DNA of 64,000 bases from Candidatus Tayloriibacteriota bacterium (GTDB lineage: Bacteria; Patescibacteriota; Minisyncoccia; Phycocordibacterales; SIBU01): the NCBI GenBank assembly GCA_016188455.1, contig JACPHR010000018.1, positions 5,079 to 69,078 of the forward strand, in the 5' to 3' direction. The translations under genes were made by a program, and so were the position numbers. Positions 4,772-45,691 of this stretch are shown in pieces (the first letter of the stretch is position 1; each line of letters starts with the position of its first letter). The notes under the pieces are model-generated. The model had not been told where the DNA came from. It searched no databases and worked only from the letters and a program-made list of their open reading frames with translations.

Positions 4772-5066
4772 TGAATTACGAAACTCCCTGAGGCACCTCT
4801 CCGAAAGGGGTGAGACGTGCAGGGAGCACGTCGCAAGACCTTGAGTACTCCGTCTTCGGAGAGCGAAAGGTGTACAGTTCCTGTAGGGAATAGGAGCGGC
4901 CGGCGCCGCAACTTCAGCCCAGCACCATTTTTACCGAATAAATGACGATTGACTTGTTTGGGTTCTAAGAGTAAAAACTTTTTTAATGAATTACAGATTG
5001 CTCTGTGAAAATGGTGCTGGGCGTACCCTTCCCCACAGGTGCCGAGGGAAGGAGTTTCATAATTCA
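4772..5066. mobile_element. Family-A palindromic MITE-like element, long variant with a nested family-C element (4918-5021)
   Basis: Ends tgaattacgaaactcc / ggagtttcataattca. The inner inverted repeat is cccagcaccattttt...aaaatggtgctggg; further nested stems are present. Confidence 0.5.
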
Positions 5067-5109
5067 AATAGCATTGCGCTAGGGGATTTTTTTATCTATC
5101 ATTACCGCT

Positions 5110-6570
5110 ATGTCGTTTCTTAAAATAGGTTCGGAGCGGCTAAAAAATTTTACCCGAGTTCATTGGCACTGGCTTGTTTTAGGAGCGGTTCTGTGCGCCG
5201 TGGTTATTTGGTCGTCCGGAACGCTTTTGACCAAACCGAAGCTTTGGATTGATGAAGCCATGACCATAAACACCGCCAGGAGTTTTATGACGCACGGAGT
5301 GCTTAGCCCGGAAACCGCGCCCAATACTTTTTTTCAGTTTCCTCATCTTGTGCAATCCACCGGTTACCCGCTGACCCTAACCCTGGCGGGCTTCTTTAAA
5401 GTTTTCGGTTACGGTTTCTATCAGGCCAGGATTTTGATGCTCCTCTGGATAGTTGCAGCCTTGTCCTTAGTTTTTTTTCTGGCCAAGAAATTATTTTCCC
5501 GGGAGCAGGCCTGTTGGAGCCTGCTCCTTATCTCGAGCTTCGCCTCGTTTTACGCCAATGGCCGCACGGCGGTGGGGGAGATACCGGGGTTTGCGTTTTT
5601 ATTGGCCGGATTCTACTTTATGCTTGTTCGGCGGCGGTACTTTTGGGCGGGCATTTTTTGGGGACTCTCGGTGGTAACCAAGCCGTCGGTTTTCGGACTC
5701 GTTATACCGGCGATTTTTCTAACTTTTCTTTTAGAACGGTCCGGTTTTTTCCGGAAAATCGTCCCTCTAGCTTTAGGCATGATGCCGGCGGCCGTAGTTT
5801 GGATATTGCTCTTGGTGCCGCGGCCTTTTAACGGAGAAACATGGCTGAGCATCGCCCATTTTTACAAAAACCCCTACAGCTCGTCCATTGCCGGCAATGT
5901 CATTCGCAACCTCTCGGGCGTTTTTCATTCAACCACCCTTATTTATTTCGGCTTATTTTTCTTGCTTGTTTTGGGCGCGCGCTTGCTTCTGAAAGAAACC
6001 AGACTTAGCAGCCTCTATACCTTTACGCTTGTTTATAGTTTGTTGGCTTTTGTCTATTACCTGCGCAGTCCGGGCTGGCTTAGGTATATTTTGATTGCCG
6101 AGCTTTTAATCCTTTTTATTCTGCCGCCTGTTATCGGCGCCCTGACGGCCTATGCCAAAGAGCGTCTAAAGAAAGTTTCAATGAACGCCAATACGTTTGC
6201 CAACTTCATTTTGGGATTTTTGGTCATAGTCCAAATCGCGCAAATGTTCACTATAGCTAAAATTTTTGCCGGCGATAACGCCCTGCGAACCGCCGTTTAT
6301 CTGGAGAAGAATTTTCCCGACAGCGCCATCGGCCTGCTCAACGCTCCGGAGCTCGCCATTCTCCTCAATCCCTCCCGGGTTTTTTTGGCCGTTTATCTGA
6401 CCGGCTTGCCCATTATCGGCGAGAATCCTCTGTTGCTCTCAAAGCCGCCGGCGGTCATCGTCTCTCCCACGGGCAACCCTTTCGCGGCTGAAGGCCGGAA
6501 AATTCTCTATGAGCGCTACGGGTCGTCCTCGGTTGCCGGCGGTTACGGCATCTATAAGCGGTCGCGGTAA
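5110..6570 (+). CDS. GT-C fold membrane glycosyltransferase (PMT/ArnT-like, GT39/GT83-type)
   Basis: About 12 predicted TM segments. First-loop DE motif (LWIDEAMTINTARSF) resembles PMT/ArnT families. Confidence 0.5.
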   Translation: MSFLKIGSERLKNFTRVHWHWLVLGAVLCAVVIWSSGTLLTKPKLWIDEAMTINTARSFMTHGVLSPETAPNTFFQFPHLVQSTGYPLTLTLAGFFKVFGYGFYQARILMLLWIVAALSLVFFLAKKLFSREQACWSLLLISSFASFYANGRTAVGEIPGFAFLLAGFYFMLVRRRYFWAGIFWGLSVVTKPSVFGLVIPAIFLTFLLERSGFFRKIVPLALGMMPAAVVWILLLVPRPFNGETWLSIAHFYKNPYSSSIAGNVIRNLSGVFHSTTLIYFGLFFLLVLGARLLLKETRLSSLYTFTLVYSLLAFVYYLRSPGWLRYILIAELLILFILPPVIGALTAYAKERLKKVSMNANTFANFILGFLVIVQIAQMFTIAKIFAGDNALRTAVYLEKNFPDSAIGLLNAPELAILLNPSRVFLAVYLTGLPIIGENPLLLSKPPAVIVSPTGNPFAAEGRKILYERYGSSSVAGGYGIYKRSR

Positions 6571-6612
6571 AACGGAAACCTATCACCTTTTACCCGGGGA
6601 GAAAATCAAAAT

Positions 6613-6879: not shown

Positions 6880-6951
6880 TCTTTTTTTCTTTCCTCCTAA
6901 AACAAACCTTGCGGTTCCTTTAAGCGAAGTACATCGGGGCGGCTTTTGGTG

Positions 6952-7424: not shown

Positions 7425-7610
7425 AAATGTATGATAATCTAATATGATAATATCATATACCCTCGGCTTTTCCTTGTCAAATAAATCTCGGTGATTTATT
7501 TGACCCTGAGGCTTTGTCGAATGGGTCAAGAGGCGCGGGCTAAAACAGCCTCGCCGTCCGGCCGAGGCATAGGTGGAATTGGCAGAGAGCGACAAAACTG
7601 CTCGGTAGAA

Positions 7611-9815
7611 TTAAAGGTGGCTGCCCCCCTTTTCTTTTTTGTCAAACAAAGACAGGCCTCCGAGCTGAAGCCAGATAGATGCGATAATCAGCAGTTCCGA
7701 GAAAGTGTACTTGGAGGAATCCAACATTTTGCAGCCCCAGGACGGCGAGGCGAAATCCCGCCAGCCCAAATACATGCAATCGGGCACGAAAGCTAAGATT
7801 AGAGCGACCACGAGCATAAACCACGGAATAGGGTGCATTTTGTCGCTTGACCAAGGGTGGCGGCCGACGGCTAAAGCCGCGAGCGGTATGAGCCAGATAG
7901 TGTTCATGACCCAGGTTAAAGGACCGAGCAAAAGCAAAACCATCAGCACGGCGTACCAATACAAAAACTCCTGCTCCGGCGAAAACTGGGGAGTTTTCAT
8001 TCTGATTTTTTTCAAGCCCAAGAAAGCCAACGGCAGAAAAAACGCCAAGAGGAGAAAAGAAATGAGCGAGGCGGAAATTTGCCAGTTCTTATTTATGTCT
8101 TGCAGTCGCAAGACGATAAAGCGGGAAAGCGAGGCGTTGGGAGAGAAAGAAATTTTAACGTCTTTAAACCAATGCCCGTCTTTGGCAAAGCCGTCTGGGT
8201 GGCCCAGGCCGTACTCACTGTAGTATTTTGCGAAATAACTCTCCGGCAATTTGGCCTCCGCCGGCCCGTTTTCACTGCCATTTTGCACAAAGCGAGGCAG
8301 TTCTTTTGTTAAATAATTTCCTAAGATATTGGGTCCGAGGAACAGTACGGTCAAAACAACGATAGTCGCTCCGCCGAGGAGGTATCCCGCGAGCATTTTC
8401 CACTGTTTCCTTAGAATGAAAAACAAAACCACCAAACCGATATGCAACTTAATCAGGGTGGCGAACGCCCAAAAAAATCCCGAAGCCATTTCGCGGCGGC
8501 TGCCGCTTGAGGCTAGACTGATGGCCGTTAGGGCCAAAAGGAGAGTGAGAGCGTCTATTTGGCCGAGGGCGATAAAGGTTAGCAGGGGGAAAAACAAAGA
8601 AGCGTAAATACCCACCGCCGCGCACTGCCAAAAACGGAGCTTCAGTTTTAAGGCGCGAATAGTAATAAAAATTGACGCCAATAAGCAGGCCAAAGAAAAA
8701 TAAAGCCAAAAAAATTTGGCTGTGCCGTAGGTCATCATGTTTGCCATCAGTTCGAAAGGCACGGCCACCAAGGGCGGATAGATAAAACGGCTGTAGGTGT
8801 AAATGGCGTTCCCGTCCCAAATGGGCGGCTCTCTTACTATGCCGTTTTGGTAAATCGGAAAACCGGCGTTTAAGCTTTGGCCGGCCGTGTAATAAACCGA
8901 GAAGTCTCTTTGGACGCCGTCTTGGCCGAAACGATTGATGTTGCCGTAGAGTCTTATGAGGGAAAATAAGAGGAGCGCGCTCAAACCGCTTGCCGCTATG
9001 ATTTTAAATAAAGATCGCCCTCGCAGGGTATTATTCGCATGAGCGGCATTCGTAGCGCCGCCATCCCCGCTTTTTCGGAAAAGCGGGAGATGTCTTAAGA
9101 AAGTTTTAATGATAAATCTGAGATACCTAAAGCCTTCTCTGGATATTTTCAACTTCGTGGCGCCGTAAATCCTTTCCCCGTATTCAATGGGAATTTCCAT
9201 TATTCTGGCGCCGTTTTCTTTGGCGTAAAACGAAAATTCTATCAAAAAAGTGTTGCCTTTCGTTTTCAGTTTATCTTTGATGGCGTTAAAAACCTTCTTT
9301 TTGAAAAGCCGAAACCCGCTTGAAGTGTCGTAGACGGTAAGTCCCGTTGCCAGGCGCGTTATAAACTGGCTTATAATGCTCAGGAGAACCGGAAAAACCG
9401 GTTTGCCTTTCATCATACTGAACCTGTTATTTACGTATCTTGAGCCTATCACCATGTCAAAATCTTTCATTTTCTTAAGCATCACCGGCAACAATTCGGG
9501 CTCGTAGCAAAGGTCCGCGTCAATGGACGCGACATATTTTTTGCTTGCGGCCTCAAAGCCTTCAAACCAGGCGCCGGCAAGGCTCGGAGGGGGGTCTCTA
9601 AAAATGACTTTCAGTTCCGGAATCAATTTTACTTGCTCGCTGAGATATTCAAAGGAGCCGTCCCCGCTCCGGTCGTCAACCACTATTATTTCCCCGTCCA
9701 GTTGATTTTTTCTGAAGACGGCGAGGATTTTAGGAATCAGTATTTGCAGATTCTTTTTCTCGTTGTAAGTAGGGATTACAACAGATAGTTCTTTTTCCAT
9801 AGTTTTAAACGGCAT
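7611..9815 (-). CDS. Fusion protein: N-terminal GT2 (Dpm1-like) domain plus C-terminal polytopic membrane domain
   Basis: N-terminus LSVVIPTYNEKKNL...IIVVDDRSGDGS (GT2). Residues from about 270 onward are highly hydrophobic multi-pass, resembling DUF2029/GT87-like membrane transferases. Confidence 0.6.
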   Translation of the reverse strand: MPFKTMEKELSVVIPTYNEKKNLQILIPKILAVFRKNQLDGEIIVVDDRSGDGSFEYLSEQVKLIPELKVIFRDPPPSLAGAWFEGFEAASKKYVASIDADLCYEPELLPVMLKKMKDFDMVIGSRYVNNRFSMMKGKPVFPVLLSIISQFITRLATGLTVYDTSSGFRLFKKKVFNAIKDKLKTKGNTFLIEFSFYAKENGARIMEIPIEYGERIYGATKLKISREGFRYLRFIIKTFLRHLPLFRKSGDGGATNAAHANNTLRGRSLFKIIAASGLSALLLFSLIRLYGNINRFGQDGVQRDFSVYYTAGQSLNAGFPIYQNGIVREPPIWDGNAIYTYSRFIYPPLVAVPFELMANMMTYGTAKFFWLYFSLACLLASIFITIRALKLKLRFWQCAAVGIYASLFFPLLTFIALGQIDALTLLLALTAISLASSGSRREMASGFFWAFATLIKLHIGLVVLFFILRKQWKMLAGYLLGGATIVVLTVLFLGPNILGNYLTKELPRFVQNGSENGPAEAKLPESYFAKYYSEYGLGHPDGFAKDGHWFKDVKISFSPNASLSRFIVLRLQDINKNWQISASLISFLLLAFFLPLAFLGLKKIRMKTPQFSPEQEFLYWYAVLMVLLLLGPLTWVMNTIWLIPLAALAVGRHPWSSDKMHPIPWFMLVVALILAFVPDCMYLGWRDFASPSWGCKMLDSSKYTFSELLIIASIWLQLGGLSLFDKKEKGGSHL

Positions 9816-9917
9816 GTTCTTCGTAGGATTTATATTGAAGATTATACCTTACATCATAAATAAAATATCTTCAAATAAGTGTGCTAGACGAGCACATCGG
9901 TGACAGTCCTATTCTTA

Positions 9918-9990
9918 CCTTGAATTACGAAACTCGGTTTCCGCGAAGAGAACTTCATCCCGCGCGCCTTGTCCGGACTGAGGCAAGCCC
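9918..9990. mobile_element. Truncated family-A element (left half only)
   Basis: ccttgaattacgaaactcggtttccgcgaagagaacttcatcccgcgcgccttgtccggac is the reverse complement of the right half of the nadE-internal copy. No matching right end is present. Confidence 0.4.
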
Positions 9991-10091
9991 CCGCACCAAT
10001 TTCACCAAAGATGCGCGAGGGGTTTTGACGAGAGAGGCGGGGATGGACACGCGACAATGCGCGGTATTATGACCCACAGAGAGGGCAGTTC

Positions 10092-10529
10092 TTGAGTCAA
10101 GACCCGCTCCATCTCGCTCTAGGGAATGCACAGCAAGTTAAACAACTGACGGGGCAGGAACAGCAAGCGTATTTGGCAGAGCCACAGAATCTAAATAGCC
10201 ACTCTTACGGAAAAAATAATCCGCTAAAGTTTAGTGATCCAAGCGGATTGTTCTGGTGGTACGGGTTCTACGATTGGACAGGCTACGAGGGTATTCGGGG
10301 GAGTGGCAATGAAAGCAGGAGAAGTGTTTGGTGGCCACAGCCGGGCATTAAATGCCATCCAGTGGTAATTGGTGTAATTGGTGTCAGTAATTGTAATTGG
10401 TGTCATAATTGGTGTCAGATAATTGGTGTCATAATTGGTGTCAGTAATTGGTGTCTAATTGGTGTCATAATTGGTGTCAGGTACCTTTTAGTAATTGGTG
10501 TCAGTAGTAATTGGTGTAATTGGTGGTAA
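10092..10529 (+). pseudogene. Orphan C-terminal fragment of an RHS/YD-repeat polymorphic toxin (NPxxxxDPxGL tip), running into a tandem-repeat array
   Basis: ...QNLNSHSYGKNNPLKFSDPSGL is the RHS core-end motif. No upstream RHS core and no recognisable toxin domain; the ORF continues into 11-bp repeats. Confidence 0.45.
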
Positions 10530-10548
10530 TTGGTGTCAGGTACCTTTT
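10372..10548. repeat. Tandem array of 11-12-bp units (AATTGGTGTCA[T/G]) ending in GGTGTCAGGTACCTTTT (two copies)
   Basis: About 12 direct units read directly. Terminal 17-mers at 10473-10489 and 10532-10548. Confidence 0.7.
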
Positions 10549-10579
10549 ATTTTCCAACATTTCATGATACACTCTCATC

Positions 10580-11260
10580 ATGGGACGAGCACCACGAGTT
10601 GATGTCGGCGGCGAGGTCTATCATATTATAAATCGTGCCAACGGCCGGCAGACAATCTTCCACACAAAAGAGGAGTATTTGCATTTTGAGCAACTTCTCA
10701 CTGAAGCTAAAGAACTGAATAGCATGCGTATTCTTGCCTATATCCTTATGTCAAACCACTGGCACTTGGTACTTCATCCTCACCGTGACGGCGATCTTTC
10801 TGTGTTCATGCAATGGCTTACCTTAACTCACACCCAGCAATATCACTCAAGAACAAAAACGATTGGCTACGGCCATCTCTATCAGGGACGATACAAGTCA
10901 TTTCTCGTCGAAAAAGACAACCATCTTCTCCAGCTTATCCGCTATGTGGAGCGCAATGCTTTTCGTGCTAAACTTGTTAAACAGGCGGAGAATTGGCGAT
11001 GGGGAAGTGCATACCGGAGAACCCAGGGTGCACCGCAAGCAAAAGCATTACTGAGTGATACCATTATTGAGCTTCCCAAAGATTATCTTGAGTGGTTGAA
11101 CGAAAAAGAAGATGCGGGCGCCCTTGCTATTATTCGCCAGTCAGTAAACAAAGGAACCCCATTGGGAGCAGTAAAATGGGTCAAGCGGACAGTTGATAAA
11201 TTTGATTTACTTTTAACCACGCGCTTGCGTGGAAGGCCGAAAGATGAAAAAGGTACCTGA
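10580..11260 (+). CDS. REP-associated tyrosine transposase (RAYT; IS200/IS605-like HUH Y1 transposase)
   Basis: YHIINRANGRQTIF...ILAYILMSNHWHLVL (HuH motif) ...YQGRYKS (catalytic Tyr region). About 226 aa, typical RAYT length. Confidence 0.75.
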   Translation: MGRAPRVDVGGEVYHIINRANGRQTIFHTKEEYLHFEQLLTEAKELNSMRILAYILMSNHWHLVLHPHRDGDLSVFMQWLTLTHTQQYHSRTKTIGYGHLYQGRYKSFLVEKDNHLLQLIRYVERNAFRAKLVKQAENWRWGSAYRRTQGAPQAKALLSDTIIELPKDYLEWLNEKEDAGALAIIRQSVNKGTPLGAVKWVKRTVDKFDLLLTTRLRGRPKDEKGT

Positions 11261-11480
11261 CACCAATTCCTCAATTCCTGACACCAATTCCCCAATTCCA
11301 ATTCCTGACACCAATTCCCATTGGGAGCAGTAAAATGGGTCAAGCGGACAGTTGATAAATTTGATTTACTTTTAACCACGCGCTTGCGTGGAAGGCCGAA
11401 AGATGAAAAAGGTACCTGACACCAATTCCTCTGACACCAATTCCTGACACCAATTCCCTGACACCAATTCCACAGGTTAC
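11247..11480. repeat. Inverted copy of the 11-bp repeat array (TGACACCAATT units) with AAAAGGTACCTGACACC ends, including a 106-bp tandem duplication of the RAYT 3' end
   Basis: 11161-11266 is repeated at 11320-11425 (period 159 bp). The unit orientation is the reverse complement of the upstream array. Confidence 0.65.
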
Positions 11481-16006: not shown

Positions 16007-17275
16007 TCATTGTGGTTTTTGAATATTTTTTAGCAGGGATTTTTGCCGCTCTTCAATAATTCTCATAATTGTCGCGTTATAATCGTCTTTTGTCCATAGC
16101 GAGAGCCGTTTTTGTCCGTTTAGAACTAGTTTCTTTCTTAGTTCCGCGTTATTCCAAAGCAGGTGAATCTTTTCGGCCATATCTTCGGGAGACTTGGGAT
16201 TTATGAGGAGCGCGGCGTCGCCGGCCTGCTCTTTACAGCCTCGGACGTTTGAATAGATTGCCGGACAATTCATTTGCCAGGCTTCAACCAACGGTATGTT
16301 GGTCCAGCCGAAGTAAGTGGGCATGATAAAACCGGTGGCCAGTCGGTATAAGGCCCCCATCTCTTCATTGTCAACATAGCCCAACAGATAGACCTGGGGT
16401 TCAAGGTTATTTTGTTTAATATACTGAAGCACTTTGTCGTAAGTTCCCCACAGCCCCCGTTTAGAGCCGGCCAGCGCCAGCGGCGCGATTTCATCCCTGT
16501 CTCTTAAGAGCTTGACCGCTTTGAGCAGGTTCAAATGATTTTTATGCGGCCAGAATTGCGCCGGATAAAAAAGAAATTTTTCCGGCAGAGAAAACTTGGC
16601 GGCGATTTGTTTCGCCTTTTGGACCGAGAGGTTGGTTTTAAGGTATTTCGGCGGCAGGGGAGGGAGAATGATGATTTTTTCCGGAGAGACGCCGTAATAG
16701 CGCGTTATGTCTTCTTTGCCGATTGGCGAATCAACCAGAATTCTGTAGGCGCGATTTTTGATGCGCTGATAGAGATACTGGCGCTTTTGCCGCTGGCCCA
16801 GTTTTGAAACTTCCGGAAATCTCGGATTGATGAGATGCTGCAAGTCTTGGATAGGCACGACGGCGGGAATGGGGTTAAGGAAAGACAATTCCGAAGGCCC
16901 ATGAAAAAAAATCAAGTCCGGATTTTCTTTCATGACGGCTTGAGCCCTTTTTTTCGCCCGCCAAGTCGTTAGAAAAATTTCCAGCCGGTAGAGGCGCAAT
17001 TTTTGGAGCATGCCGCGAATGAAGACCGAAAGCCTTCTTTCGGCGGTTTCTTTTTTCGCCGGCCCCGTTTTCGTTTCCGCCGCGCCGCCGCGGCGCATCA
17101 GATTGATGATTTTCCAGTTTGGCAGATTGAAATCGGCGAACGGAAAGTCCGAAGAAACGGTAAAGACGACAAAATCATGCTCTCGGTTTTCCCTTAAGGC
17201 ATCCAAAAGATTCAGAGCGTATTGATATACCCCGCCGCTGCTTTTTAGGCATTCAAAATAAAAACCGATGCGCAT
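16007..17275 (-). CDS. Glycosyltransferase family 4 (GT-B)
   Basis: C-terminal ...GFIMPTYFGWTNIPLVEAWQMNCPAIYSNVRGCKEQAGDAALLINP typical GT4 nucleotide-sugar binding region. Confidence 0.6.
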   Translation of the reverse strand: MRIGFYFECLKSSGGVYQYALNLLDALRENREHDFVVFTVSSDFPFADFNLPNWKIINLMRRGGAAETKTGPAKKETAERRLSVFIRGMLQKLRLYRLEIFLTTWRAKKRAQAVMKENPDLIFFHGPSELSFLNPIPAVVPIQDLQHLINPRFPEVSKLGQRQKRQYLYQRIKNRAYRILVDSPIGKEDITRYYGVSPEKIIILPPLPPKYLKTNLSVQKAKQIAAKFSLPEKFLFYPAQFWPHKNHLNLLKAVKLLRDRDEIAPLALAGSKRGLWGTYDKVLQYIKQNNLEPQVYLLGYVDNEEMGALYRLATGFIMPTYFGWTNIPLVEAWQMNCPAIYSNVRGCKEQAGDAALLINPKSPEDMAEKIHLLWNNAELRKKLVLNGQKRLSLWTKDDYNATIMRIIEERQKSLLKNIQKPQ

Positions 17276-17284
17276 AAGCTATTG

Positions 17285-17393
17285 TGAATTACGAAACTGG
17301 CGTGCTTCAAGAAACCCCTCCCGCTTGCCCCCCGTAAGGCCTTGAGCGCGCGGGAGGGGTTTCTTTTCGCACTAAGCAAGCCCTCGTAATTCA
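17285..17393. mobile_element. Family-A palindromic MITE-like element
   Basis: tgaattacgaaactgg...ccctcgtaattca ends; inner stem gaaacccctcccgc/gcgggaggggtttc. Fills the intercistronic gap between two minus-strand genes. Confidence 0.55.
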
Positions 17394-17401
17394 TAGTAAG
17401 T

Positions 17402-17812
17402 TTAGTCTATGAGCTTGTCTTTACCGGTGAGCCGGACGACGTCCGATTCAAATTCCGCGCCTTGGCGGGGACCTAAAGTGCAGCTTAACATGACGGCATC
17501 TTCCAAGGCTTTATAGGCGTGCCGCTGGGGGAACGGCTGGGTGACGAGGTCGCCGGCCACTACTATTTTTTCTTCCGTCGGCGCGGTCGCGTCCGGTCTG
17601 ACGCGGCACAAGAAAGAGCCGCTTAGGATGTAATCGTACTGCACGCTCTTGTTGTGGTAATGATTGCCCCGCACCGCGCCTTTCTTGAAAGTAATGTAGG
17701 TAATGGCGTCTACCAGAGTGTGGGTGGTAATGTCTCGGATAACGCCGCGTTCGTCCTCGAAACTATTTTTTATTTTTTTGACTATCATTTTTTTTGTATT
17801 CTTTGGCGTCAA
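17402..17812 (-). CDS. Cupin sugar 3,4-ketoisomerase (FdtA/QdtA/Tyl1a-like)
   Basis: FEDERGVIRDI...KKGAVRGNHYH core typical of TDP-4-keto-6-deoxyhexose 3,4-isomerases (WxcM-like cupin). Confidence 0.55.
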   Translation of the reverse strand: MTPKNTKKMIVKKIKNSFEDERGVIRDITTHTLVDAITYITFKKGAVRGNHYHNKSVQYDYILSGSFLCRVRPDATAPTEEKIVVAGDLVTQPFPQRHAYKALEDAVMLSCTLGPRQGAEFESDVVRLTGKDKLID

Positions 17813-19109: not shown

Positions 19110-19127
19110 GAATTTGGTGTGAATGGC

Positions 19128-19225
19128 GAAGTTCGCTTTCGGCGCAGAGAAACCCCTCCCGCGCGCCTTGGCTGGACTCTAGGCAAGCGGGAGGGGTTTC
19201 TTGAAGCGCGAGCTTCGCCATTCAC
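19128..19225. mobile_element. Diverged family-A element
   Basis: gtgaatggcgaagttcgc...gcgagcttcgccattcac ends (12/16 identity with the canonical TGAATTACGAAACTCG). Same internal gaaacccctcccgcgcgccttg...caagcgggaggggtttc core. Confidence 0.45.
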
Positions 19226-19253
19226 GGAAATTTAATGACAGATTTTCTCACAG

Positions 19254-29602: not shown

Positions 29603-29710
29603 CCTTGAATTACAAAACTCATTGCTCCAAGAAACCTCTCCCGCTTGCCTAACTCCGGACAAGGCGCGCGGGAGGGGTTTCTCTCCGCGGATAATGAGTT
29701 TCGTAATTCA
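29603..29710. mobile_element. Family-A palindromic MITE-like element
   Basis: ccttgaattacaaaactcat...atgagtttcgtaattca perfect ends. Core ccggacaaggcgcgcgggaggggtttc. Ends 7 nt before the next ATG. Confidence 0.55.
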
Positions 29711-29717
29711 CAGTAAT

Positions 29718-31627: not shown

Positions 31628-31673
31628 TCCTTCCGCCTCTCAGGATACTCTGGATACTCTGAAAATCTCCTTG

Positions 31674-31709
31674 TTACCTAACTCAAGCGTACGCTTGAGT
31701 TAGGTAACA
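31674..31709. repeat. Perfect 36-bp palindrome (copy 1 of 2)
   Basis: gttacctaactcaagcgtacgcttgagttaggtaac. Identical 41-mer context at 43032-43072. Confidence 0.6.
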
Positions 31710-31784
31710 TAGGTGACAGGTGACCGGTGACAGATGTTTTCGCGACACAGTCAGTGTTTATGATTGACGGCTTTGTTGGTATAT

Positions 31785-37474: not shown

Positions 37475-38746
37475 TTATTTTGTAGCAGGTTTTGCTTCCC
37501 CAATTCGTATGACTTTTACGCCGGGCCGGTTCTTGAAATATCTAAAAGGGTCAATGACCACCGAGCCTTTCGGGAAACGATAGGTGTTAAATACTTCGTG
37601 CTTGGTAGCTAAGAAATAAATAGCTGGTTTTAATTTCAATGGTTTGTCATCAATATGAGGGTCGTGATGAGTATGCTTCAGTTCTCGTTCTCTAAGGATA
37701 TTTACTAATAGTGTCGCGGGGCTTCCGACAGTCAGATTAGTGCCGGCCTTGAAAGATTTTCCAAGAACGATAATCGGCAATTTATGCTTTTTATGCTCGG
37801 CATGTACGAGATTCGCCAGCCATTCGGTCTGATGTTCCCGCGCCATCATCAAATCGTTGAAAATGTTGTGGGACAATTTCAATTTGCCAGCGAGCCAGCT
37901 CATGGCTATATTGTCTCTGGGGTGGCAGCCGCCGCCGTCTCCCATGCCGCCGGAGAGATACCGCGGACTCATCAGACGATGCCGAGCCAAACCGATTGCC
38001 CGTGTGACACTATCCGCGTCGGCTCCCACATTGTGGCAGATTTCCATGACGGTGTTGGCAAACACTATTTTCATTCCGATGTAAGTGTTATAGGCCACCT
38101 TTATCAATTCCGCCGATTTAATGGTGGTCTCATAAATGAGACCGCGGTGGATAGTCTGATAGAAATTCTTTAACGCTCTGGCGGCCGCTTTTTCGTCAAC
38201 GCCGATTAAAACAAATTCCGGATTGAGAAAGTCTTTCACGGTCGTACCCATGGCGATAAAGAGCGGTTCATACACCAAGTGGATGTATTGGTTGAGGAGA
38301 GGTTTTATTTCCCGCTCTATGGTGCCTGGCAAGACGGTGGAGATAATGACTAAAACAATGTTTTTACGCAATTTTTTCGCCGCCGCCACCACATCTTTTA
38401 TGCCGGCAACCAAAAAGGAGTATTCAAAATCGGCCCGCTCTTTCGGCAATCTGGTTGTGCCTTCAAATTTTTCATGGTGCGGGGTTTGAATCGGCATGAA
38501 CACCATATCGGAAAATTTTACCACCTCCTCAACCGAACCCAGTTTGATTTTGGTTTTTTTGAGCAGAGCCGGCGCGCCTTCCTCTTGGTAGGGGATTTTT
38601 CTCTTTCTGAGATATTCCGCAATCTTTGGACTGATGTCGTAGCCCATGACCTTGTACCCCTTGCTTTCAATGGCCAGCGCTACCGGCAACCCGAGCTTGC
38701 CCAAGCCGATGAAGCCGATGTTTTTTTTGGAGCTCTTTTTATTCAT
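37475..38746 (-). CDS. NDP-sugar dehydrogenase (UDP-glucose/UDP-ManNAc dehydrogenase family)
   Basis: NIGFIGLGKLGLPVALAI N-terminal Rossmann, UDPG_MGDP_dh central and C-terminal regions. Confidence 0.7.
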   Translation of the reverse strand: MNKKSSKKNIGFIGLGKLGLPVALAIESKGYKVMGYDISPKIAEYLRKRKIPYQEEGAPALLKKTKIKLGSVEEVVKFSDMVFMPIQTPHHEKFEGTTRLPKERADFEYSFLVAGIKDVVAAAKKLRKNIVLVIISTVLPGTIEREIKPLLNQYIHLVYEPLFIAMGTTVKDFLNPEFVLIGVDEKAAARALKNFYQTIHRGLIYETTIKSAELIKVAYNTYIGMKIVFANTVMEICHNVGADADSVTRAIGLARHRLMSPRYLSGGMGDGGGCHPRDNIAMSWLAGKLKLSHNIFNDLMMAREHQTEWLANLVHAEHKKHKLPIIVLGKSFKAGTNLTVGSPATLLVNILRERELKHTHHDPHIDDKPLKLKPAIYFLATKHEVFNTYRFPKGSVVIDPFRYFKNRPGVKVIRIGEAKPATK

Positions 38747-39729: not shown

Positions 39730-39739
39730 TTTGGGTATA

Positions 39740-39862
39740 GGACTTACGCAATCGGATGCAGTTCGAGGCGCGAGCTCGGCTTGCGACCAAGCTGTAGTTA
39801 GATGCTACTGCGCGGGAGCAAACGAGCGAAGCAACGAAGAAATGCGCCGATTGCGTAAGTCC
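39740..39862. mobile_element. Family-B palindromic element (intergenic copy)
   Basis: Perfect 16-bp ends ggacttacgcaatcgg / ccgattgcgtaagtcc. Interior matches the copy inside the nucleotidyltransferase gene. Confidence 0.6.
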
Positions 39863-39974
39863 TAAAGAAATAATCACCACATGGTCGCATATTCATCGGC
39901 AAAAATCAATCAACTACCGCGCAGCAAACTGACTAGGTATACCGAGTCAGACTTGCTGGCAGTGCGGTAGTTGA

Positions 39975-40076
39975 CCCAGCACCATTTTCACCGATATGCC
40001 GCTTGTGATATATGAAAATCTTTCCCCAATCATGTATAACAGTTAGAAACGAGCATTCTGTAAAAATGGTGCTGGG
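39975..40076. repeat. Family-C palindromic element
   Basis: cccagcaccattttcacc...ctgtaaaaatggtgctggg; same ends as 4918-5021. Confidence 0.5.
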
Positions 40077-40160
40077 TTGATTATCCGCAAGCCACCTCAA
40101 AAATTTCCGGTGGGCGGATAATAAAAAATTGAAAAATCCAAACCGTTTGCTATGATTGCT

Positions 40161-40267
40161 TTGAATTACGAAACTCGTTTTTTGCGGAGAGAAACCTCTC
40201 CCGCGCGCCTTGTCCGGACGGGAGGCAAGCGGGAGGGGTTTCTCGAAGCAAGAGTTTCGTAATTCAA
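40161..40267. mobile_element. Family-A palindromic MITE-like element
   Basis: ttgaattacgaaactc...gagtttcgtaattcaa perfect 16-bp ends. Core ccttgtccggacgggaggcaagcgggaggggtttc. Lies 27 nt upstream of the nadE start. Confidence 0.55.
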
Positions 40268-40293
40268 GACATGATTACACCCATTACGTTTCT

Positions 40294-42105
40294 ATGCGTA
40301 TAGCCATACTACAACTCAATTACACAGTCGGAGATTTTGAAGGAAACGCGGCCAAGATTCTTCAAGGCTATCGTCGCGCCCGCAAAGAAGGGGCGGAGGT
40401 AGTGCTCGGGACGGAGCTCTCGCTCTTCGGCTACCCGCCGCTTGACCTGTTGGAACGCGCTGACTATATTGCGAAACAGTACGATGAATTAAAAAAATTG
40501 ACCGCCAAAATCGGCGGCGTCCCTCTGGTCATAGGCGTTGCCGAGAAAAACGAAAACAAAAAAGGCAAACCGCTTTTTAACAGCGCGGTTGTTATTCACA
40601 ACGGGCGGATTGTTCACCGCGCGCGCAAGACACTGCTTCCCACCTATGATGTCTTTGACGAGTCGCGTTATTTTGAAGCCAACGACGGGCCGGTTCGGCC
40701 TTGGGTATACAAAGGCAAAAAAATCCTTATACTGCTCTGTGAAGATATTTGGAACGGGTCCGAGAACGCCGACAATAAACTCTACCATACCTTGAATTAC
40801 GAAACTGGCGCTTCGAGAACTTCTTCCCGCCCGCCTGCCAGCGCCGGAGCCGCAGGCTATGGCGGGCAGGCTTGCTTCCCGTCCGGACAAGGCGCGCGGG
40901 ATGAAGTTCTCTTAGCGGAAACCGAGTTTCGTAATTCAAGGTACCACAAGGACCCGCTTATAGAAGCCAAGGCGCTTTCTCCCGATTTGGTATTGGTCAT
41001 CAACGGCTCGCCCTATTTTTGGGGCAAGGGAGACGGGCGGCTGTCGCTTGTCTCGGGCATCGGCCGGCGCTTGCGCTGCCCGATATTTTACGCCAATCAA
41101 GTGGGCGGCAATACGGACCTGGTTTTTGACGGGCGAAGTTTCGCGGTGGACGGAAATGGCAGATGCATCGGAGCCGCCAAACCGTTCGCCGAGGATGTCT
41201 TGATGGTTGATACCAAAACAGCCAAAGCGGTTGCATATTCCTCCGATGCTGGCAAACCGGAAGAACTTTACAACGCGCTTGTCTGCGGGGTCCGTGACTA
41301 CTTGAGGAAAATCAAAAACACCAAAGGAGTGGTGGTGGGGCTTTCGGGCGGCGTTGATTCGGCGCTGGTCGCTACCATCGCCGTGGACGCGCTCGGTGCG
41401 GACAAAGTGCGCGGCATTGCTATGCCCTCGACCTTCTCCTCCGATGAGAGTGTCATTGACGCCAAGACCCTGGCGGAAAATCTTGGCATTCAATTTGACG
41501 TTGTTCCCATTAAAAAAGCCTACGGCTCTTTCGGAGAAATACTCGGGCCGGTCATTGGCTGGGAAAAGCCGCTTGCCTTGGCCGAAGAGAATGTGCAAGC
41601 GCGCGTTCGGGGCCTGATTTTGATGGCCATTTCAAATCGCGAGGGCAATATTGTGCTCACCACCGGAAACAAATCGGAGATTGCGGTGGGCTACTGCACG
41701 CTCTACGGGGACATGGCCGGGGGCTACGCCGTGATTTCGGACATTCCCAAGACGGTTGTCTACAGCTTGGCGGAATACCGGAACGCTAAAGCCAAGAAAG
41801 ACATCATTCCGCGCCGCAGCCTTGAAAAGGCGCCGTCCGCCGAGCTTCGGCCAAACCAGAAGGACCAGGACACCTTGCCGCCTTATGACGTGCTTGACGA
41901 TATTTTAGAGCAGTATGTTGAAGAGCAGAAAGGTCTAGCTGATATTGTTAAATCGGGGCACAATCCAAAAACGGTGGAGTGGGTAATCCAGACGATTGAC
42001 AGGAACGAGTATAAACGTCGGCAGATGCCGCCCGGGCCGAAGGTCACGGGCAAAGCCTTCGGCAGCGGCCGGCGGATTCCCATCGCGGCCAAGTTTATCC
42101 TGTAG
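40294..42105 (+). CDS. nadE: Glutamine-dependent NAD+ synthetase carrying an in-frame repeat-element insertion
   Basis: N-terminal CN-hydrolase domain (...ILILLCEDIW...) plus C-terminal NAD synthetase (VVGLSGGVDSALVA, ...SDE..., ...GYCTLYGDM...). Start refined to MRIAILQL. Confidence 0.8.
   Translation: MRIAILQLNYTVGDFEGNAAKILQGYRRARKEGAEVVLGTELSLFGYPPLDLLERADYIAKQYDELKKLTAKIGGVPLVIGVAEKNENKKGKPLFNSAVVIHNGRIVHRARKTLLPTYDVFDESRYFEANDGPVRPWVYKGKKILILLCEDIWNGSENADNKLYHTLNYETGASRTSSRPPASAGAAGYGGQACFPSGQGARDEVLLAETEFRNSRYHKDPLIEAKALSPDLVLVINGSPYFWGKGDGRLSLVSGIGRRLRCPIFYANQVGGNTDLVFDGRSFAVDGNGRCIGAAKPFAEDVLMVDTKTAKAVAYSSDAGKPEELYNALVCGVRDYLRKIKNTKGVVVGLSGGVDSALVATIAVDALGADKVRGIAMPSTFSSDESVIDAKTLAENLGIQFDVVPIKKAYGSFGEILGPVIGWEKPLALAEENVQARVRGLILMAISNREGNIVLTTGNKSEIAVGYCTLYGDMAGGYAVISDIPKTVVYSLAEYRNAKAKKDIIPRRSLEKAPSAELRPNQKDQDTLPPYDVLDDILEQYVEEQKGLADIVKSGHNPKTVEWVIQTIDRNEYKRRQMPPGPKVTGKAFGSGRRIPIAAKFIL
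40789..40940. mobile_element. Family-A palindromic element inserted in frame within nadE
   Basis: Perfect 18-bp ends ccttgaattacgaaactc / gagtttcgtaattcaagg. Encodes ...TLNYETGASRTSSRPPASAGAAGYGGQACFPSGQGARDEVLLAETEFRNSRY... without interrupting the frame. Confidence 0.6.
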
Positions 42106-42134
42106 ACTTTTTCCCGTTTCGAATTAAATCAATT

Positions 42135-42917
42135 ATGAATGAGCTGATGTATAAGGTAAAAAGAAAACTCTTACACCTCATTGGCAGTGGATGGGGTTAC
42201 TCTGGCGACTATCAAAACTGGAACCACCCTACATTTACCAGATATGATGATCCGATTATTTTTCAAAGAACACAAAAAGCTTTTGAAATGGTTAAGGCCA
42301 ACAATGCGTTATATGTTCGAGACAGCACACCGGTAAGGACTAGAGAGTATAACACCACTCTCACCAACATCTTAGATAGAATCTCAAGAGAGAGAGAGAG
42401 AGAGAGGATTGTCCTGCTAGATTTTGGAGGAGGAATGGGAACTGCGTACTTTCAAAACAAAGAACGGCTACCTTTAATGGATTGGAATATTGTTGAGCAG
42501 AAGAACCTGATTGATTACATGACAAAGGAGATACCTTACAGGTTTGGCTTGTTTACTGACACACAGGATTGTATTTACCAAAAGGATCCTGATGTCGCAT
42601 TATTTTCTGGTTCTCTGCAGTACATTGAACATCCTTATAAAATTCTGGGTTTAGTTGCCAAAACGGTTGATTATATTATTTTTGATCATACGACATTCAT
42701 TGACGCAGAAAAGGATCGTCTTACTCGACAAATCATCAATCCAAAAATCTACCCGGCACGCTTTCCTTGTTGGTTTTTTAGCGAAAACAAGATCAAGAAT
42801 TTTTTATCGCAATATGGCTTTCGATTTGAATCAGAATCTGATACAAAATCCATCAAATTAAAGGGAGTACAAGCCGCTTATAAAGATATGTTTTTTATAA
42901 AAACTCGAGTAAAATAA
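42135..42917 (+). CDS. Putative SAM-dependent methyltransferase on a low-GC cassette
   Basis: LLDFGGGMGTAYF (motif I-like). Markedly AT-rich relative to nadE. Flanked by an identical 29-mer at 42079-42107 and 42948-42976. Confidence 0.45.
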   Translation: MNELMYKVKRKLLHLIGSGWGYSGDYQNWNHPTFTRYDDPIIFQRTQKAFEMVKANNALYVRDSTPVRTREYNTTLTNILDRISRERERERIVLLDFGGGMGTAYFQNKERLPLMDWNIVEQKNLIDYMTKEIPYRFGLFTDTQDCIYQKDPDVALFSGSLQYIEHPYKILGLVAKTVDYIIFDHTTFIDAEKDRLTRQIINPKIYPARFPCWFFSENKIKNFLSQYGFRFESESDTKSIKLKGVQAAYKDMFFIKTRVK

Positions 42918-42947
42918 AAACAGCGTCATTTGTGTGATTTTTCAGCT

Positions 42948-42976
42948 CCCATCGCGGCCAAGTTTATCCTGTAGAC
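42948..42976. repeat. 29-bp direct repeat of the nadE 3' end (second copy)
   Basis: cccatcgcggccaagtttatcctgtagac identical to 42079-42107. Confidence 0.7.
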
Positions 42977-43031
42977 CTTATTATCTGCCCGCAGAATATC
43001 CAGCACTTGCTTTATCTTAATCTTACCTAAT

Positions 43032-43067
43032 GTTACCTAACTCAAGCGTACGCTTGAGTTAGGTAAC
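43032..43067. repeat. Perfect 36-bp palindrome (copy 2 of 2)
   Basis: gttacctaactcaagcgtacgcttgagttaggtaac; identical to 31674-31709. Confidence 0.6.
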
Positions 43068-43218
43068 ATAGGGCAATCGTTATTCGGTAAAAATGGCGTT
43101 GAGTCAACCTACCTAGCGGTGTGATTTTTCTCTAGTGAATGGGGTTATAGAAGCCGATTGAAAAGGCCGCCAGTGTTTGCTATGATTACGCGCACTGTCG
43201 CATTGAGTCACATAATAA

Positions 43219-44469
43219 ATGTCTCTAATTACGATGAAGGTTACTAAGACTAAAACAAAAAAAAATATCCGGGTACCCTATCTTTTGACCGTTTACGGCA
43301 AGGAGGAGATAAAGGCGGTCAATGAAGTTTTGAAAGACCCGACCAAAATCTCAAGCGGGCCAAGGGTGCGCGAATTTGAACAAAAAATCGCGGGGATGTT
43401 CGGCAAAAAATTCGGCGTCATGGTCAATTCCGGTTCCTCGGCCAACCTTTTGGCCGTGGACGCGCTTAACATGCCCAAAGGTAGCGAAGTCATCACCCCA
43501 ATTCTCACTTTTGCCACTACCGTCTCGCCCATCGTGCAGAGGGATTTAGTGCCGGCTTTTGCGGATGTAGAAGAGGGAACTTACCAGATTAATATAAACC
43601 AGATTGGCAGTTTGCTTTCCAAAAAGACCAAGGCGCTCATGATCCCGTCTCTCATTGGCAATATGGCCGACCTTTCTAAACTGAAAGCTTTCGCGAAGAA
43701 ACACAAGCTTTGGTTCATTGAAGATTCCTGCGATGTGCTGGGCGCCAAATTTGCCGGCCGGCCGACCGGAAGCTATTCGGATGTTTCCACCACCAGCTTC
43801 TACGCCGCCCACGTTATCACCACCGCGGGCGCGGGCGGCGTGGTGGCCTTTCACGACGGCGCGCTGGCCAAGCGGGCCCTTATCAAAGCCAACTGGGGGA
43901 GGGAGTCAACGCTTTTTGGTTTTTACGAAAAATCGGAAGAGCTAAAGAAACGTTTCGCCGGCGCACTCGGGGGCATGCCGTATGACGCCAAATTTATTTT
44001 CAGCGAACTGGGCTACAATTTTCAGTCAACGGAAATCAACGCCGCTTTCGGTTTGGAGCAACTCAAACGATTCCCGAAATTTGTCGCCCGCCGCAAACAA
44101 AACGCGGCGGCGCTCTTAAAATTTTTCAAACGCTATGAAGCCTTTTTCATTTTGCCGGTAGAACACCCCAAAGCAGAAACTTTCTGGCACGCTTTTCCGC
44201 TCACTATCAGAAAAGGCGCCCCATTCACCCGTCTTGAGATTACGAAATATCTTGAGGAAAGAAATATTCAAACCAGGCCGATTTTTACGGGCAACATTTT
44301 GAGGCAGCCGGCCTTCCGCCATATAAAAGCCAAGACGTTAAAAGAGGGCTATCCCGTGGCCGACCATATTATGCGCAACGGGTTTCTGATAGGGTGCAAT
44401 CATGGATTGGGAGAAAAACATATTGCCCATCTGTTCGATTCTTTTGAGCAGTTTCTCAAGAACAAATAA
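43219..44469 (+). CDS. DegT/RfbH-family PLP-dependent enzyme (CDP-6-deoxy-hexulose 3-dehydrase / sugar aminotransferase-like)
   Basis: About 416 aa with ...VNSGSSANLLAV... and ...DSCDVLGAKF... (Lys region); the length fits RfbH/DdhC-type. Confidence 0.6.
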   Translation: MSLITMKVTKTKTKKNIRVPYLLTVYGKEEIKAVNEVLKDPTKISSGPRVREFEQKIAGMFGKKFGVMVNSGSSANLLAVDALNMPKGSEVITPILTFATTVSPIVQRDLVPAFADVEEGTYQININQIGSLLSKKTKALMIPSLIGNMADLSKLKAFAKKHKLWFIEDSCDVLGAKFAGRPTGSYSDVSTTSFYAAHVITTAGAGGVVAFHDGALAKRALIKANWGRESTLFGFYEKSEELKKRFAGALGGMPYDAKFIFSELGYNFQSTEINAAFGLEQLKRFPKFVARRKQNAAALLKFFKRYEAFFILPVEHPKAETFWHAFPLTIRKGAPFTRLEITKYLEERNIQTRPIFTGNILRQPAFRHIKAKTLKEGYPVADHIMRNGFLIGCNHGLGEKHIAHLFDSFEQFLKNK

Positions 44470-45456
44470 ATGCTTAAAAAACAAAGAATTTTGGTTGCCG
44501 GCGGGGCCGGCTATGTGGGTTCAAGACTCGTTCCTGCTCTTATTAAAGACGGCCACCAAGTGACGGTTCTTGACTTGTTATGGTTTGGCAATACACTTCC
44601 CAAAAAAGTAAAAGTCATCAAAAAGGATATTTTTGATATTGACACAAACACCCTAAAGGGTTTTGACCAGGTGATTTTTTTGGCCGGCCTTTCCAATGAC
44701 CCGATGGCCGAGTATTCGCCCGCCCAAAATTTTATTTGCAACAGCGCCGCTCCGGCCTATCTCGCTTATATCGCCAAAGTCGCCGGAGTGAAACGTTTTA
44801 TCTACGCCTGTTCCGGCTCCGTCTACGGCTTCACCGAAGATAAAATTCTTGATGAGAACTCAGTTGCAGAGAGTTCGTTTCCCTACGGCATCTCCAAGAG
44901 GAAGGGCGAGTTCGGCGTGATGTATCTTCAGGACGAAACTTTTTCAGTAATCAGTTTGCGCAAAGGCACTATCTCCGGCTGGAGTCCGCGGATGCGCTTT
45001 GATCTTATCGTCAACACCATGTACATGAAAGCCCAAACGCTCGGCAAGGTTAGCATAAACAATCCGGCCATTTGGCGGCCGATTCTTGCCATTGAAGACG
45101 CGGTGGCGGCTTACCTAAAGGCGGTGGCTACGCCTCTTTCGGTGAGCGGCGTGTTCAATATTTCCTCGGGCAATTTTACCGTTGGCGCCGTGGGAGAAAA
45201 AGTCAGAGAACATTTTAAGCAAAAACACGGCCGGTCTTTGGTTGTTGAGGTTAAAAATATTCCCGACAAGCGCAATTATAAAATCTCCACCAAAAAAGCC
45301 CAAAAAATTCTCGGTTTCAAACCGACCGGCACCATAGAATCAATTCTTAAGGAATTGGACGAGCGCGTCGGCGCCGATTTCAATTTCGCCGATGAGAAGC
45401 ACTACAACATTCTGGTGTTCAAGAAAACTTTCAAAAACCGTCGTTCTAAAAATTAA
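44470..45456 (+). CDS. NAD-dependent epimerase/dehydratase
   Basis: ILVAGGAGYVGSRL..., YGISKRKGE. Confidence 0.65.
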   Translation: MLKKQRILVAGGAGYVGSRLVPALIKDGHQVTVLDLLWFGNTLPKKVKVIKKDIFDIDTNTLKGFDQVIFLAGLSNDPMAEYSPAQNFICNSAAPAYLAYIAKVAGVKRFIYACSGSVYGFTEDKILDENSVAESSFPYGISKRKGEFGVMYLQDETFSVISLRKGTISGWSPRMRFDLIVNTMYMKAQTLGKVSINNPAIWRPILAIEDAVAAYLKAVATPLSVSGVFNISSGNFTVGAVGEKVREHFKQKHGRSLVVEVKNIPDKRNYKISTKKAQKILGFKPTGTIESILKELDERVGADFNFADEKHYNILVFKKTFKNRRSKN

Positions 45457-45471
45457 ATCAAAGTTTCTTAA

Positions 45472-45691
45472 TATTGAATTACAAAACTCTTGCCAAGAGA
45501 TTCCCTTTCCACAAGCCTCGGCTCCGGACAAGGCGCGTGGAAGCGGAAAAGGTCTCTTTCCGCGAACAATCCGCATCTTTTAAGGGTATCACCGATACCC
45601 AGAAATGGCTTTTAGCCGCTATCGCGGCTAAAAGCCATTGTTGAACATTTTATGTAGCGGGAGGTGACTGAAAAAGAATTTCGTAACTTAG
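45472..45691. mobile_element. Family-A-related composite element (diverged ends, extra internal hairpins) flanked by a 10-bp direct repeat AGTTTCTTAA
   Basis: ttgaattacaaaactcttgcc...agaatttcgtaactta. Core ccggacaaggcgcgtggaagcgg. Internal 15-bp perfect stem atggcttttagccgc/gcggctaaaagccat. Direct repeats at 45462-45471 and 45692-45701. Confidence 0.45.

Follow-up and report, generated by a model that had tools for sequence, protein, structure and literature searches.

The window analysed here, a stretch of 64,000 nucleotides (64 kb) of contig JACPHR010000018.1, comes from a metagenome-assembled genome (MAG) of Candidatus Taylorbacteria; its NadE and C-methyltransferase show 100% identity to NCBI proteins under that name. 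The genes here form one large cluster for the biosynthesis of sugar nucleotides and glycans, and scattered among them are eight copies of a short hairpin-forming element, which we call family A. A sequence-only reading of this DNA had proposed that the copies are non-autonomous miniature inverted-repeat transposable elements (MITEs), most of them at gene boundaries. We find that family A leaves a 7-bp duplication of its target site and shares its terminal inverted repeats (TIRs) with a 1-kb insertion sequence (IS) present in other bacteria.

All eight copies that the sequence-only reading had placed in the window are present, within about 3 nt of the positions given; the refined boundaries (Table 1) include 3 outer nucleotides that are shown below to be part of the insert. 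The end motif, TGAATTACGAAACTC, has 14 matches at three or fewer mismatches, against 2.35 expected from shuffled sequence and in none of 100 shuffles was this number reached; the core motif has 3 matches, with none expected. Mechanical repeat detection linked all eight sites to one another by direct or inverted repeats of 60–111 nt. When the whole window was scanned with an nhmmer profile derived from the five full copies, the eight sites were recovered, with E values of 1e-29 to 1e-36 for the full copies and with matches at the ends only for the 4772/5066 pair; no further copy in the window rose above noise. The copies thus align with one another beyond chance, and the end-motif count bears out the shared TIRs that had been claimed for them.

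The standard element is 111 nt in length (the four standard copies are 111–115 nt), and there are variants of 152, 220 and 301 nt. Its 18-nt TIR has the form YYT+TGAATTACGAAACTC: three variable outer positions, mostly CTT, CCT or TCT, are followed by 15 terminal nucleotides that do not vary. A GC-rich stem, GAGAAACCYCTCCCGC ... GCGGGAGGGGTTTCTC, makes up the standard interior. The internal stem that had been described is real, and each of the copies folds into one long hairpin (minimum free energy of −56 to −86 kcal/mol; z scores of −7.8 to −11.9 against dinucleotide shuffles). Hairpin stem accounts for nearly the entire sequence, and the only open reading frame (ORF) that passes through any copy is that of the host gene nadE. 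The composite copy at 45472–45691 is flanked by an exact 10-bp direct repeat, AGTTTCTTAA, as reported earlier. The structure of the long variant at 4769–5069 recurs in two independent Logan assemblies (L027 and L028).

Table 1 Copies of family A in the 64-kb window, with profile matches, predicted hairpins, flanking duplications and settings
Copy	Position	Strand	TIR or nhmmer match	Hairpin	Duplication (left / right)	Structure and setting
Long variant, 301 nt	4769–5069	unassigned	TIR matches with 0 and 1 mismatches		no clear duplication seen	Family-A shell with its own hairpin, a different interior and a nested family-C MITE (~4918–5021); divergent intergenic region between a dTDP-glucose dehydratase-like gene (3628–4701, minus) and a PMT_2 glycosyltransferase gene (5110–6570, plus)
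Truncated copy	9917–9988	+	E = 3e-17; site 9920–9988; model positions 3–72			Left TIR and left hairpin half; 95% identity with the nadE copy; upstream of a GT2/GT87 gene (7611–9815, minus)
Full copy, 115 nt	17282–17396	-	E = 5e-29	−62 kcal/mol, z −8.3	TAAGCTA / TAAGTTT	Between the stop of a cupin-like gene (17402–17812, minus) and the start of a GT1 gene (16007–17275, minus)
Full copy, 111 nt	19117–19227	+	E = 9e-32	−70 kcal/mol	GAATTTG / AAATTTA	Variant TIR TGAATGGCGAAG at both ends; 7 nt upstream of the start of a C-methyltransferase gene (17763–19109, minus)
Full copy, 111 nt	29603–29713	-	E = 6e-32	−56.5 kcal/mol, z −9.7	right-hand TAATATG, which includes the downstream start codon	Between the stop of a UDP-glucose dehydrogenase gene (29592–29594) and the start of a GFO/IDH/MocA oxidoreductase gene (29718)
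Full copy, 111 nt, perfect TIRs	40159–40269	+	E = 1e-35	−68 kcal/mol, z −10.2		nadE leader
Coding copy, 152 nt	40790–40941	-			TACCATA / TACCACA	Inside nadE
Composite copy, 220 nt	45472–45691	-	E = 3e-12; site 45474–45569; model positions 20–109			One good TIR, ~96 nt of family-A interior, ~100 nt of unrelated hairpin and a degenerate second TIR; between convergent epimerase (44470–45456) and DUF268 methyltransferase (45688–46395, minus) genes

The signature of insertion is clearest when copies are pooled. Across 76 two-ended copies from the window, public genomes and metagenomes, the two flanks agree at 61–71% per position over exactly 7 nt beside the TIRs and at 12–30% just outside. The 7-bp duplication is perfect in 28 of the 76; A+T makes up 81% of the duplicated sites, which loosely follow T-W-W-A-T-T-A. 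Related genomes supply the corresponding empty sites. A sister genome (ENA ERZ27253378, contig k141_1073849; loci L024 and L173) is syntenic with the window over about 43 kb and encodes proteins that are 62–86% identical to those of the window where aligned; a closer relative is represented by short contigs (L025 and L174). No family-A repeat occurs in the ~43 kb of syntenic sister DNA, even at 3 mismatches, and for five of the eight window copies an empty site was verified in L024, L025 or L173. Within nadE, the window reads TACCATA-CCT[...]AGG-TACCACA, and the empty site carries the heptamer once, as TACGACA in L025 and as TATCACA in L024. This comparison proves the 7-bp duplication and shows the outer CCT/AGG to be part of the insert; derivation of the 3 variable outer nucleotides from the target is thereby rejected. 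The 40159 site is empty in L024 and L025, both of which keep GCTATGATTGC once. At the 45472 site, also empty in L024, the two convergent genes lie 1 nt apart. In L173, the empty 17282 site is stop-TTC-ATG, with the codons 3 nt apart, and the 19117 site is empty (..CTAAATTTATG..) and reads ..CTAAATTT-ATG. At the junction that corresponds to the 29603 copy, the sister has 119 nt between its UDP-glucose dehydrogenase and oxidoreductase genes (k141_1073849, 37565–37683), and an orthologous copy may lie there.

The window copies post-date the split from the sister genome. The earlier description of the element as active or recently active is supported to that extent; the copies are nevertheless not fresh, being 76–95% mutually identical, with 1–2 mismatches in most duplications. 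Near-identical copies with perfect duplications do occur in an Uhrbacteria MAG.

A metagenome scan with the 18-mer returned at least 120 loci. When ends were paired within each of the loci listed, the paired-TIR elements fall into two size classes, with at least 49 of 51–324 nt and at least 15 of 973–1,062 nt. Members of the 1-kb class have the same 18-nt TIRs (the ends read CTTTGAATTACG / CCTTGAATTACG) and a single ORF of 266–269 amino acids, which is full-length in 14 of the 15 copies listed. The encoded protein matches the Pfam family DDE_Tnp_1_3 (PF13612) at 1e-25 and 90.7 bits, with a cut-off of 27. Its best NCBIfam model is IS982 (NF033520), covered from profile position 6 to 240 of 243 at 100 bits, and the annotated matches listed in a tblastn search of plasmids were all named ‘IS982 family transposase’, at 26–28% identity over 92–98% of the protein. 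In an alignment with IS982 transposases from Acinetobacter and Nostoc, the D, D and E of the catalytic triad do not vary (contexts hTDsTDiPVC, vaDAGY and IElnFR), and the N-terminal ~90 residues are poorly conserved relative to the annotated members. The transposase family comprises 1,918 clusters at E ≤ 1e-10, most of them on contigs of ~1 kb, which suggests that these contigs are collapsed multicopy repeats.

Contig L120 has an IS copy immediately downstream of gyrA. The proteins that this contig encodes, the transposase among them, are identical to NCBI MEK7128321-26, labelled ‘Patescibacteria group bacterium’; their cluster mates at 90% identity belong to Candidatus Nomurabacteria. On these sequence comparisons, the parent would be a divergent IS982-family insertion sequence resident in bacteria of the Candidate Phyla Radiation (CPR). 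An autonomous partner with matching TIRs, which the sequence-only reading had named as something to look for, was thus found as an IS of 0.97–1.06 kb with an intact DDE transposase in other CPR bacteria.

Two of the metagenomic contigs carry further mobile features. The IS-bearing contig L083 has two identical ORFs of 405 amino acids in inverted orientation (17–1234 and 3201–4418), which by their look may be IS256/mutator-type transposases; with these two beside a full-length IS982-like element, it is an IS-rich patch. At 2271–3073 of L068, a YqeY-like gene (Pfam YqeY, 7e-38) lies between two MITEs of family-A type, 156 and 136 nt in length, in a unit of 803 nt the perfect ends of which face outwards. 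The unit may be a composite that carries cargo, or simply the result of two insertions close to each other.

The host range of family A was surveyed by scanning GTDB representative genomes for two perfect ends 65–95 nt apart. The scan yielded 23 loci, all in Patescibacteria or in MAGs of unclassified bacteria, and the named hosts all belong to candidate phyla of the Parcubacteria group (mostly Uhrbacteria, plus Colwellbacteria, Kaiserbacteria and unclassified Parcubacteria; G+C contents of 32–50%). The interiors at these loci represent at least six unrelated hairpin types, and the 15-nt ends are identical. A 16-mer scan of viral_contigs gave 22 loci, each with a single TIR match and no oriented partner at MITE or IS spacing within 3 mismatches; this is about the number expected by chance and indicates no link to phages.

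The sharp 7-bp duplication, the five empty sites and the 1-kb IS with the same TIRs uphold the proposal of a non-autonomous MITE family. In sequence terms, family A is a MITE by every criterion: its members are small, have no coding capacity of their own, carry TIRs, generate a duplication of fixed length, are polymorphic for insertion and have a TIR-matched autonomous element. We consider it highly probable that family A is a MITE family of non-coding palindromes of ~111 nt, which share only an 18-nt TIR with a 1-kb IS982-family IS of Parcubacteria-group bacteria.

Several observations weigh against this assignment. The transposase falls below the NCBIfam cut-off for IS982 (130 bits) and is only distantly similar, at the identities given above, to annotated members. 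Clean duplications are rare around the full-length IS (1 of 14 perfect, and 3 with 6 nt), and chimeric assembly of multicopy repeats may account for this. No intact IS copy or DDE transposase was found in the window by Pfam searches of ~60 ORFs with a lenient pass on the unknowns. A relaxed TIR search found no partner of 0.6–3 kb in the 23 genome loci, and the solo TIRs at the ends of these loci are additional MITE copies. When MITE interiors were compared with the 15 IS copies by blastn-short, the TIRs alone matched, except for 22–24 nt at the right end of the 4769–5069 variant that are common to the end of the full-length IS in L069 and L083. As the interiors are unrelated to the IS, the main type is not a simple internal-deletion derivative, and an origin of that kind is unsupported. 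A further difficulty lies in the stem itself. Among the five full copies, changes on both sides preserve pairing at 10 of the 41 consensus base pairs, examples being TTA to GGC in both TIRs of the 19117 copy, a variant end that also occurs in an Uhrbacteria genome (L002), and three consecutive inner-stem pairs in the nadE copy. Recognition by the transposase does not require such changes, and transposition leaves them unexplained. The candidate causes are selection and template switching between the arms of the quasi-palindrome, an established mutational mechanism that restores pairing without selection.

Trans-mobilisation of family A by the IS transposase, which we infer from the sequences, would begin with binding of the IS-encoded DDE enzyme to both TIRs of a MITE. 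The MITE would then enter a 7-bp staggered cut at an A/T-rich site (approximately T-W-W-A-T-T-A), repair of which would yield the 7-bp duplication. In a genome of ~49% G+C, A/T-rich sites would be expected to cluster at stop/start junctions and promoters. Insertions that destroyed genes would be lost, leaving copies at gene boundaries, and the sole surviving coding insertion, in nadE, would be a length variant that kept the frame open. Target preference would in that case be the cause of the placement of the copies.

The coding copy at 40790, correctly recognized as such in the sequence-only reading, lies inside the ORF at 40210–42105. The insert of 152 nt and its 7-bp duplication together add 159 nt, that is, 53 in-frame codons without a stop, located 13 residues past the catalytic Cys in the motif CEDIW. 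The resulting NadE has 603 amino acids, compared with 550 and 557 in the two closest homologues, and the columns of the insert are empty in all 66 aligned homologues. Alignment with solved glutamine-dependent NAD synthetases, in which PDB 4f4h is gapped at this point, places the insert in the loop after the CEDIW strand. In an AlphaFold model of NadE (mean predicted local distance difference test score of 85.8), the sole segment that scores below 50 is residues 159–214, the insert, which is thus modelled as disordered. A standard 111-nt copy with its duplication (118 nt) would shift the frame, so only the 152-nt length variant could survive here in frame. An open in-frame insert of 53 codons has a chance probability of ~3%, estimated as (61/64)^53 / 3, which argues that the insert would be translated and not removed. 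Residence in a read-through ORF is exceptional in the family, being seen in 1 of the 76 copies.

The leader of nadE is itself crowded. Upstream of nadE, an ORF reads through a MITE. The region upstream of the gene is 564 nt in the window and 111 nt in the sister, with three MITE families stacked in it plus further small hairpins. One of these is a copy of a family that we call C (ends CCCAGCACCATTTT), which lies at 39975–40076 and is absent from sister L024; family C also occurs at 4918–5021, and its repeats at 4918 and 5008 are nested inside the long variant of family A.

Other copies stand equally close to genes. In agreement with the placements given earlier, the 17282 copy occupies a 126-nt stop-to-start gap, the 29603 copy ends 4 nt ahead of the ATG at 29718, and the 40159 copy ends 24 nt before the ATG at 40294. 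The duplications of the 17282 and 19117 copies abut start codons, and insertion has widened the corresponding operon junctions relative to the sister from 3 to 126 nt and from 20 to 144 nt, respectively. Upstream of nadE, a promoter-like site at 40129–40156 (TTGAAA-16-TG-c-TATGAT, with an extended −10 element; 10 of 12 matches) is conserved in the window, L024 and L025, and the 40159 copy has inserted immediately after its −10 box. A nadE transcript that started from this site would therefore begin with the −68 kcal/mol hairpin. Copies in operon junctions and in the nadE leader must be transcribed, and their hairpins might affect the transcripts or serve as RNase III substrates. It had been suggested that the copies supply promoters, terminators or RNase-processing sites. 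Inside the four copies scanned, no sigma-70-type promoter or terminator scored above shuffles, which is a weak negative, as CPR promoter rules may differ; two weak junction matches (9 of 12; TTCACA) were likewise not in excess of shuffles, and consensus scans of the same number of copies found no T-tract after the stems.

This placement raises the question of whether the junction copies have been exapted, and now act as host RNA structures such as RNase III sites, mRNA stabilisers or cistron decouplers, as for Correia, ERIC and repetitive extragenic palindromic (REP) elements. The hairpins are very stable; copies fall exactly within operon junctions that measure 3–20 nt in the sister, with a further copy in the leader of nadE just past its −10 box, and the both-sided changes at 10 of 41 stem pairs speak for the same reading. 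However, the sister runs the same operons without any copy, the copies scanned have neither a promoter or terminator consensus inside them nor a T-tract after them, and template switching can restore pairing without selection. The A/T-rich target preference combined with purifying selection would suffice to explain where the copies lie. We regard exaptation as unlikely.

Two further explanations would dispense with the IS altogether. Family A could be a REP/REPIN-type element mobilised by the Y1 transposase encoded at 10580–11260, ~600 nt from the truncated copy. This gene belongs to Y1_Tnp, its best NCBIfam match is ‘REP-associated tyrosine transposase’ (RAYT), the copies are palindromic like REP doublets and their left flanks are often TTAC, the target of IS608; we nevertheless consider this very improbable. 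A different repeat, TAATTGGTGTCA, surrounds the RAYT-like gene in inverted arrays, and transposition by Y1 (HUH) enzymes leaves no duplication, in contrast to the sharp 7-bp duplications and empty sites of family A; there is also a DDE-transposase IS with identical TIRs. The duplications and the gene's own flanking repeat lead us to reject it as the mobiliser. Less credible still is a conserved, immobile cis-regulatory or structured-RNA motif of CPR bacteria, such as an attenuator or a protein-binding hairpin. The identity of the 15-nt end motif across several candidate phyla with G+C contents of 32–50% and the recurrent positions beside start codons would fit such a motif, but the interiors differ wholly between genomes, one copy lies within coding sequence and the identical ends bound a transposase gene. 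Searches of the window with Rfam at gathering thresholds, and for transfer RNAs, returned nothing. The sequence-only reading had itself named conserved regulatory sequence without repeat behaviour as the finding that would overturn it; the duplications around the copies, the empty orthologous sites in close relatives and the IS partner exclude this, and they favour the MITE family with an IS982-like parent.

The window holds further repeats and candidate cassettes. A second MITE family, B (ends TATAGGACTTMCGCARTCGG, ~125 nt), has copies at 25404–25528 and 39737–39864. The first lies in frame inside an NTP_transferase ORF (24968–25822, minus), and the sister ortholog (L173:3073–3792; 62% identical) lacks exactly 43 residues at that site; the second is absent from the sister genome. 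The RAYT-like gene (Pfam Y1_Tnp, 2e-15; 62 bits to the NCBIfam model, below its cut-off of 80) is flanked by inverted arrays of a 12–14-nt unit, as TAATTGGTGTCA at 10365–10549 and as CCTGACACCAATTC at 11256–11318 and 11415–11471, and a 115-nt perfect direct repeat lies in the same region at 11158/11317. The truncated family-A copy stops where this repeat block starts.

Downstream of nadE, an ORF at 42135–42917 (260 amino acids; weak match to Methyltransf_23) is bracketed by a 33-nt direct repeat (42078–42110 and 42947–42979) that corresponds to the last 33 nt of nadE, including the stop codon. In the sister, nadE is followed directly by a DegT aminotransferase gene. The ORF thus looks like an inserted gene cassette, the entry of which duplicated the nadE 3′ end. 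Identical 42-nt copies of a sequence with a 38-nt perfect palindrome, TGTTACCTAACTCAAGCGTACGCTTGAGTTAGGTAACATAGG, occur at 31672–31713 and 43031–43072, each just downstream of a gene end, with no T-tract noted. A PDDEXK_3 nuclease gene (PD-(D/E)XK; 59426–59881) lies between the wzt and wzm ABC-transporter genes. Its flanks are rich in ATACGAAAA, with direct repeats at 59328–59409 and 60684–60765 (80% identity) and inverted repeats at 59839–59892 and 60724–60777, and the region may be another small mobile cassette. Pyrimidine-rich heptad arrays (TTCTCTA-like, at 12–14-nt spacing) flank an epimerase gene (54153–55073) at 54083–54168 and 55189–55274, with an inverted partner at 55095–55139.

Genomes of CPR (Patescibacteria) are usually called small and streamlined, and this window contains three MITE families, two in-frame coding insertions and widened gene junctions. 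If the pattern is general, it would matter for assembly and binning, given the many IS-only contigs of 1 kb that suggest collapsed repeats, for gene calling, as with the ORF upstream of nadE, and for the interpretation of lineage-specific protein insertions. The pair formed by the IS and its MITE (18-nt TIR; 267-amino-acid transposase) would also offer a compact transposition system, open to experiment, in bacteria for which genetic tools are lacking. More speculatively, hairpin MITEs could be a general and unrecognized force in CPR genomes, in which one IS982-like lineage crosses candidate phyla and repeatedly spawns hairpin MITEs that retain nothing of it but the 18-nt ends, selection keeps the hairpins paired because they act on operon mRNAs, and in-frame copies, such as those in nadE and in the sugar nucleotidyltransferase gene, feed lineage-specific insertions. 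We think this broader scenario unlikely.

The parent IS can be compared with the IS982 family as described in ISfinder, the members of which are ~1 kb in length and have one ORF of ~270–300 amino acids with a DDE motif, TIRs of 18–35 bp and duplications of 3–9 bp; their ends are usually of the AC type. The parent resembles them in its size, single ORF and DDE motif, and its 18-nt TIR and 7-bp duplication are within the family ranges. It differs in its CPR host and in its ends, which are YYTTGAA and not AC-type, although this is a weak test.

Among short palindromic repeats, the Correia elements of Neisseria (CREE/NEMIS) are like family A in their length (~100–150 nt), TIRs, hairpin formation, position at gene boundaries and co-transcription. 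Correia elements duplicate TA and have 26-nt repeats with promoter elements and a site for integration host factor; no parent transposase is known for them. Family A, by contrast, has a 7-bp duplication, a parent IS and no promoter consensus (with the caveat that host rules may differ), so that the likeness drawn in the sequence-only reading is limited to being a hairpin at gene boundaries. Rickettsia palindromic elements are also palindromes of ~100–150 nt that can add peptides in frame, as do the nadE copy and the family-B copy in the NTP-transferase gene. In-frame residence is the hallmark of the Rickettsia elements, whereas it is seen in 1 of 76 copies of family A, which has clear TIRs, a duplication and a transposase partner. 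REP and REPIN sequences share with family A their short, palindromic and intergenic character, and the window contains a RAYT-like gene; family A differs from them in making a duplication, and the arrays around that gene are of TAATTGGTGTCA and not of family A.

A search of the literature (full text, open-access only) returned nothing relevant on MITEs in CPR or Patescibacteria. The pairing of a MITE with an IS982-like element therefore appears to be new for this host group, although the kind of element is well known. The closest published analogue is MITECca01, which derives from ISCca4 of the IS982 family and is found in Cardinium, an endosymbiont of Oedothorax gibbosus (PMC9769881). Both MITECca01 and family A are short non-coding elements that share TIRs with a ~1-kb IS982-family IS of which intact copies exist, and both are expanded in one lineage and absent from close relatives. 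MITECca01 is ~240 bp in length, retains IS-derived sequence beyond the TIR and is confined to one strain of a Bacteroidota endosymbiont (PMC9769881). Family A, which is like it by description, is instead a near-perfect hairpin of ~111 nt with an interior unrelated to the IS; its interiors vary between genomes while its TIRs stay identical, and it spans several candidate phyla of the Parcubacteria group.

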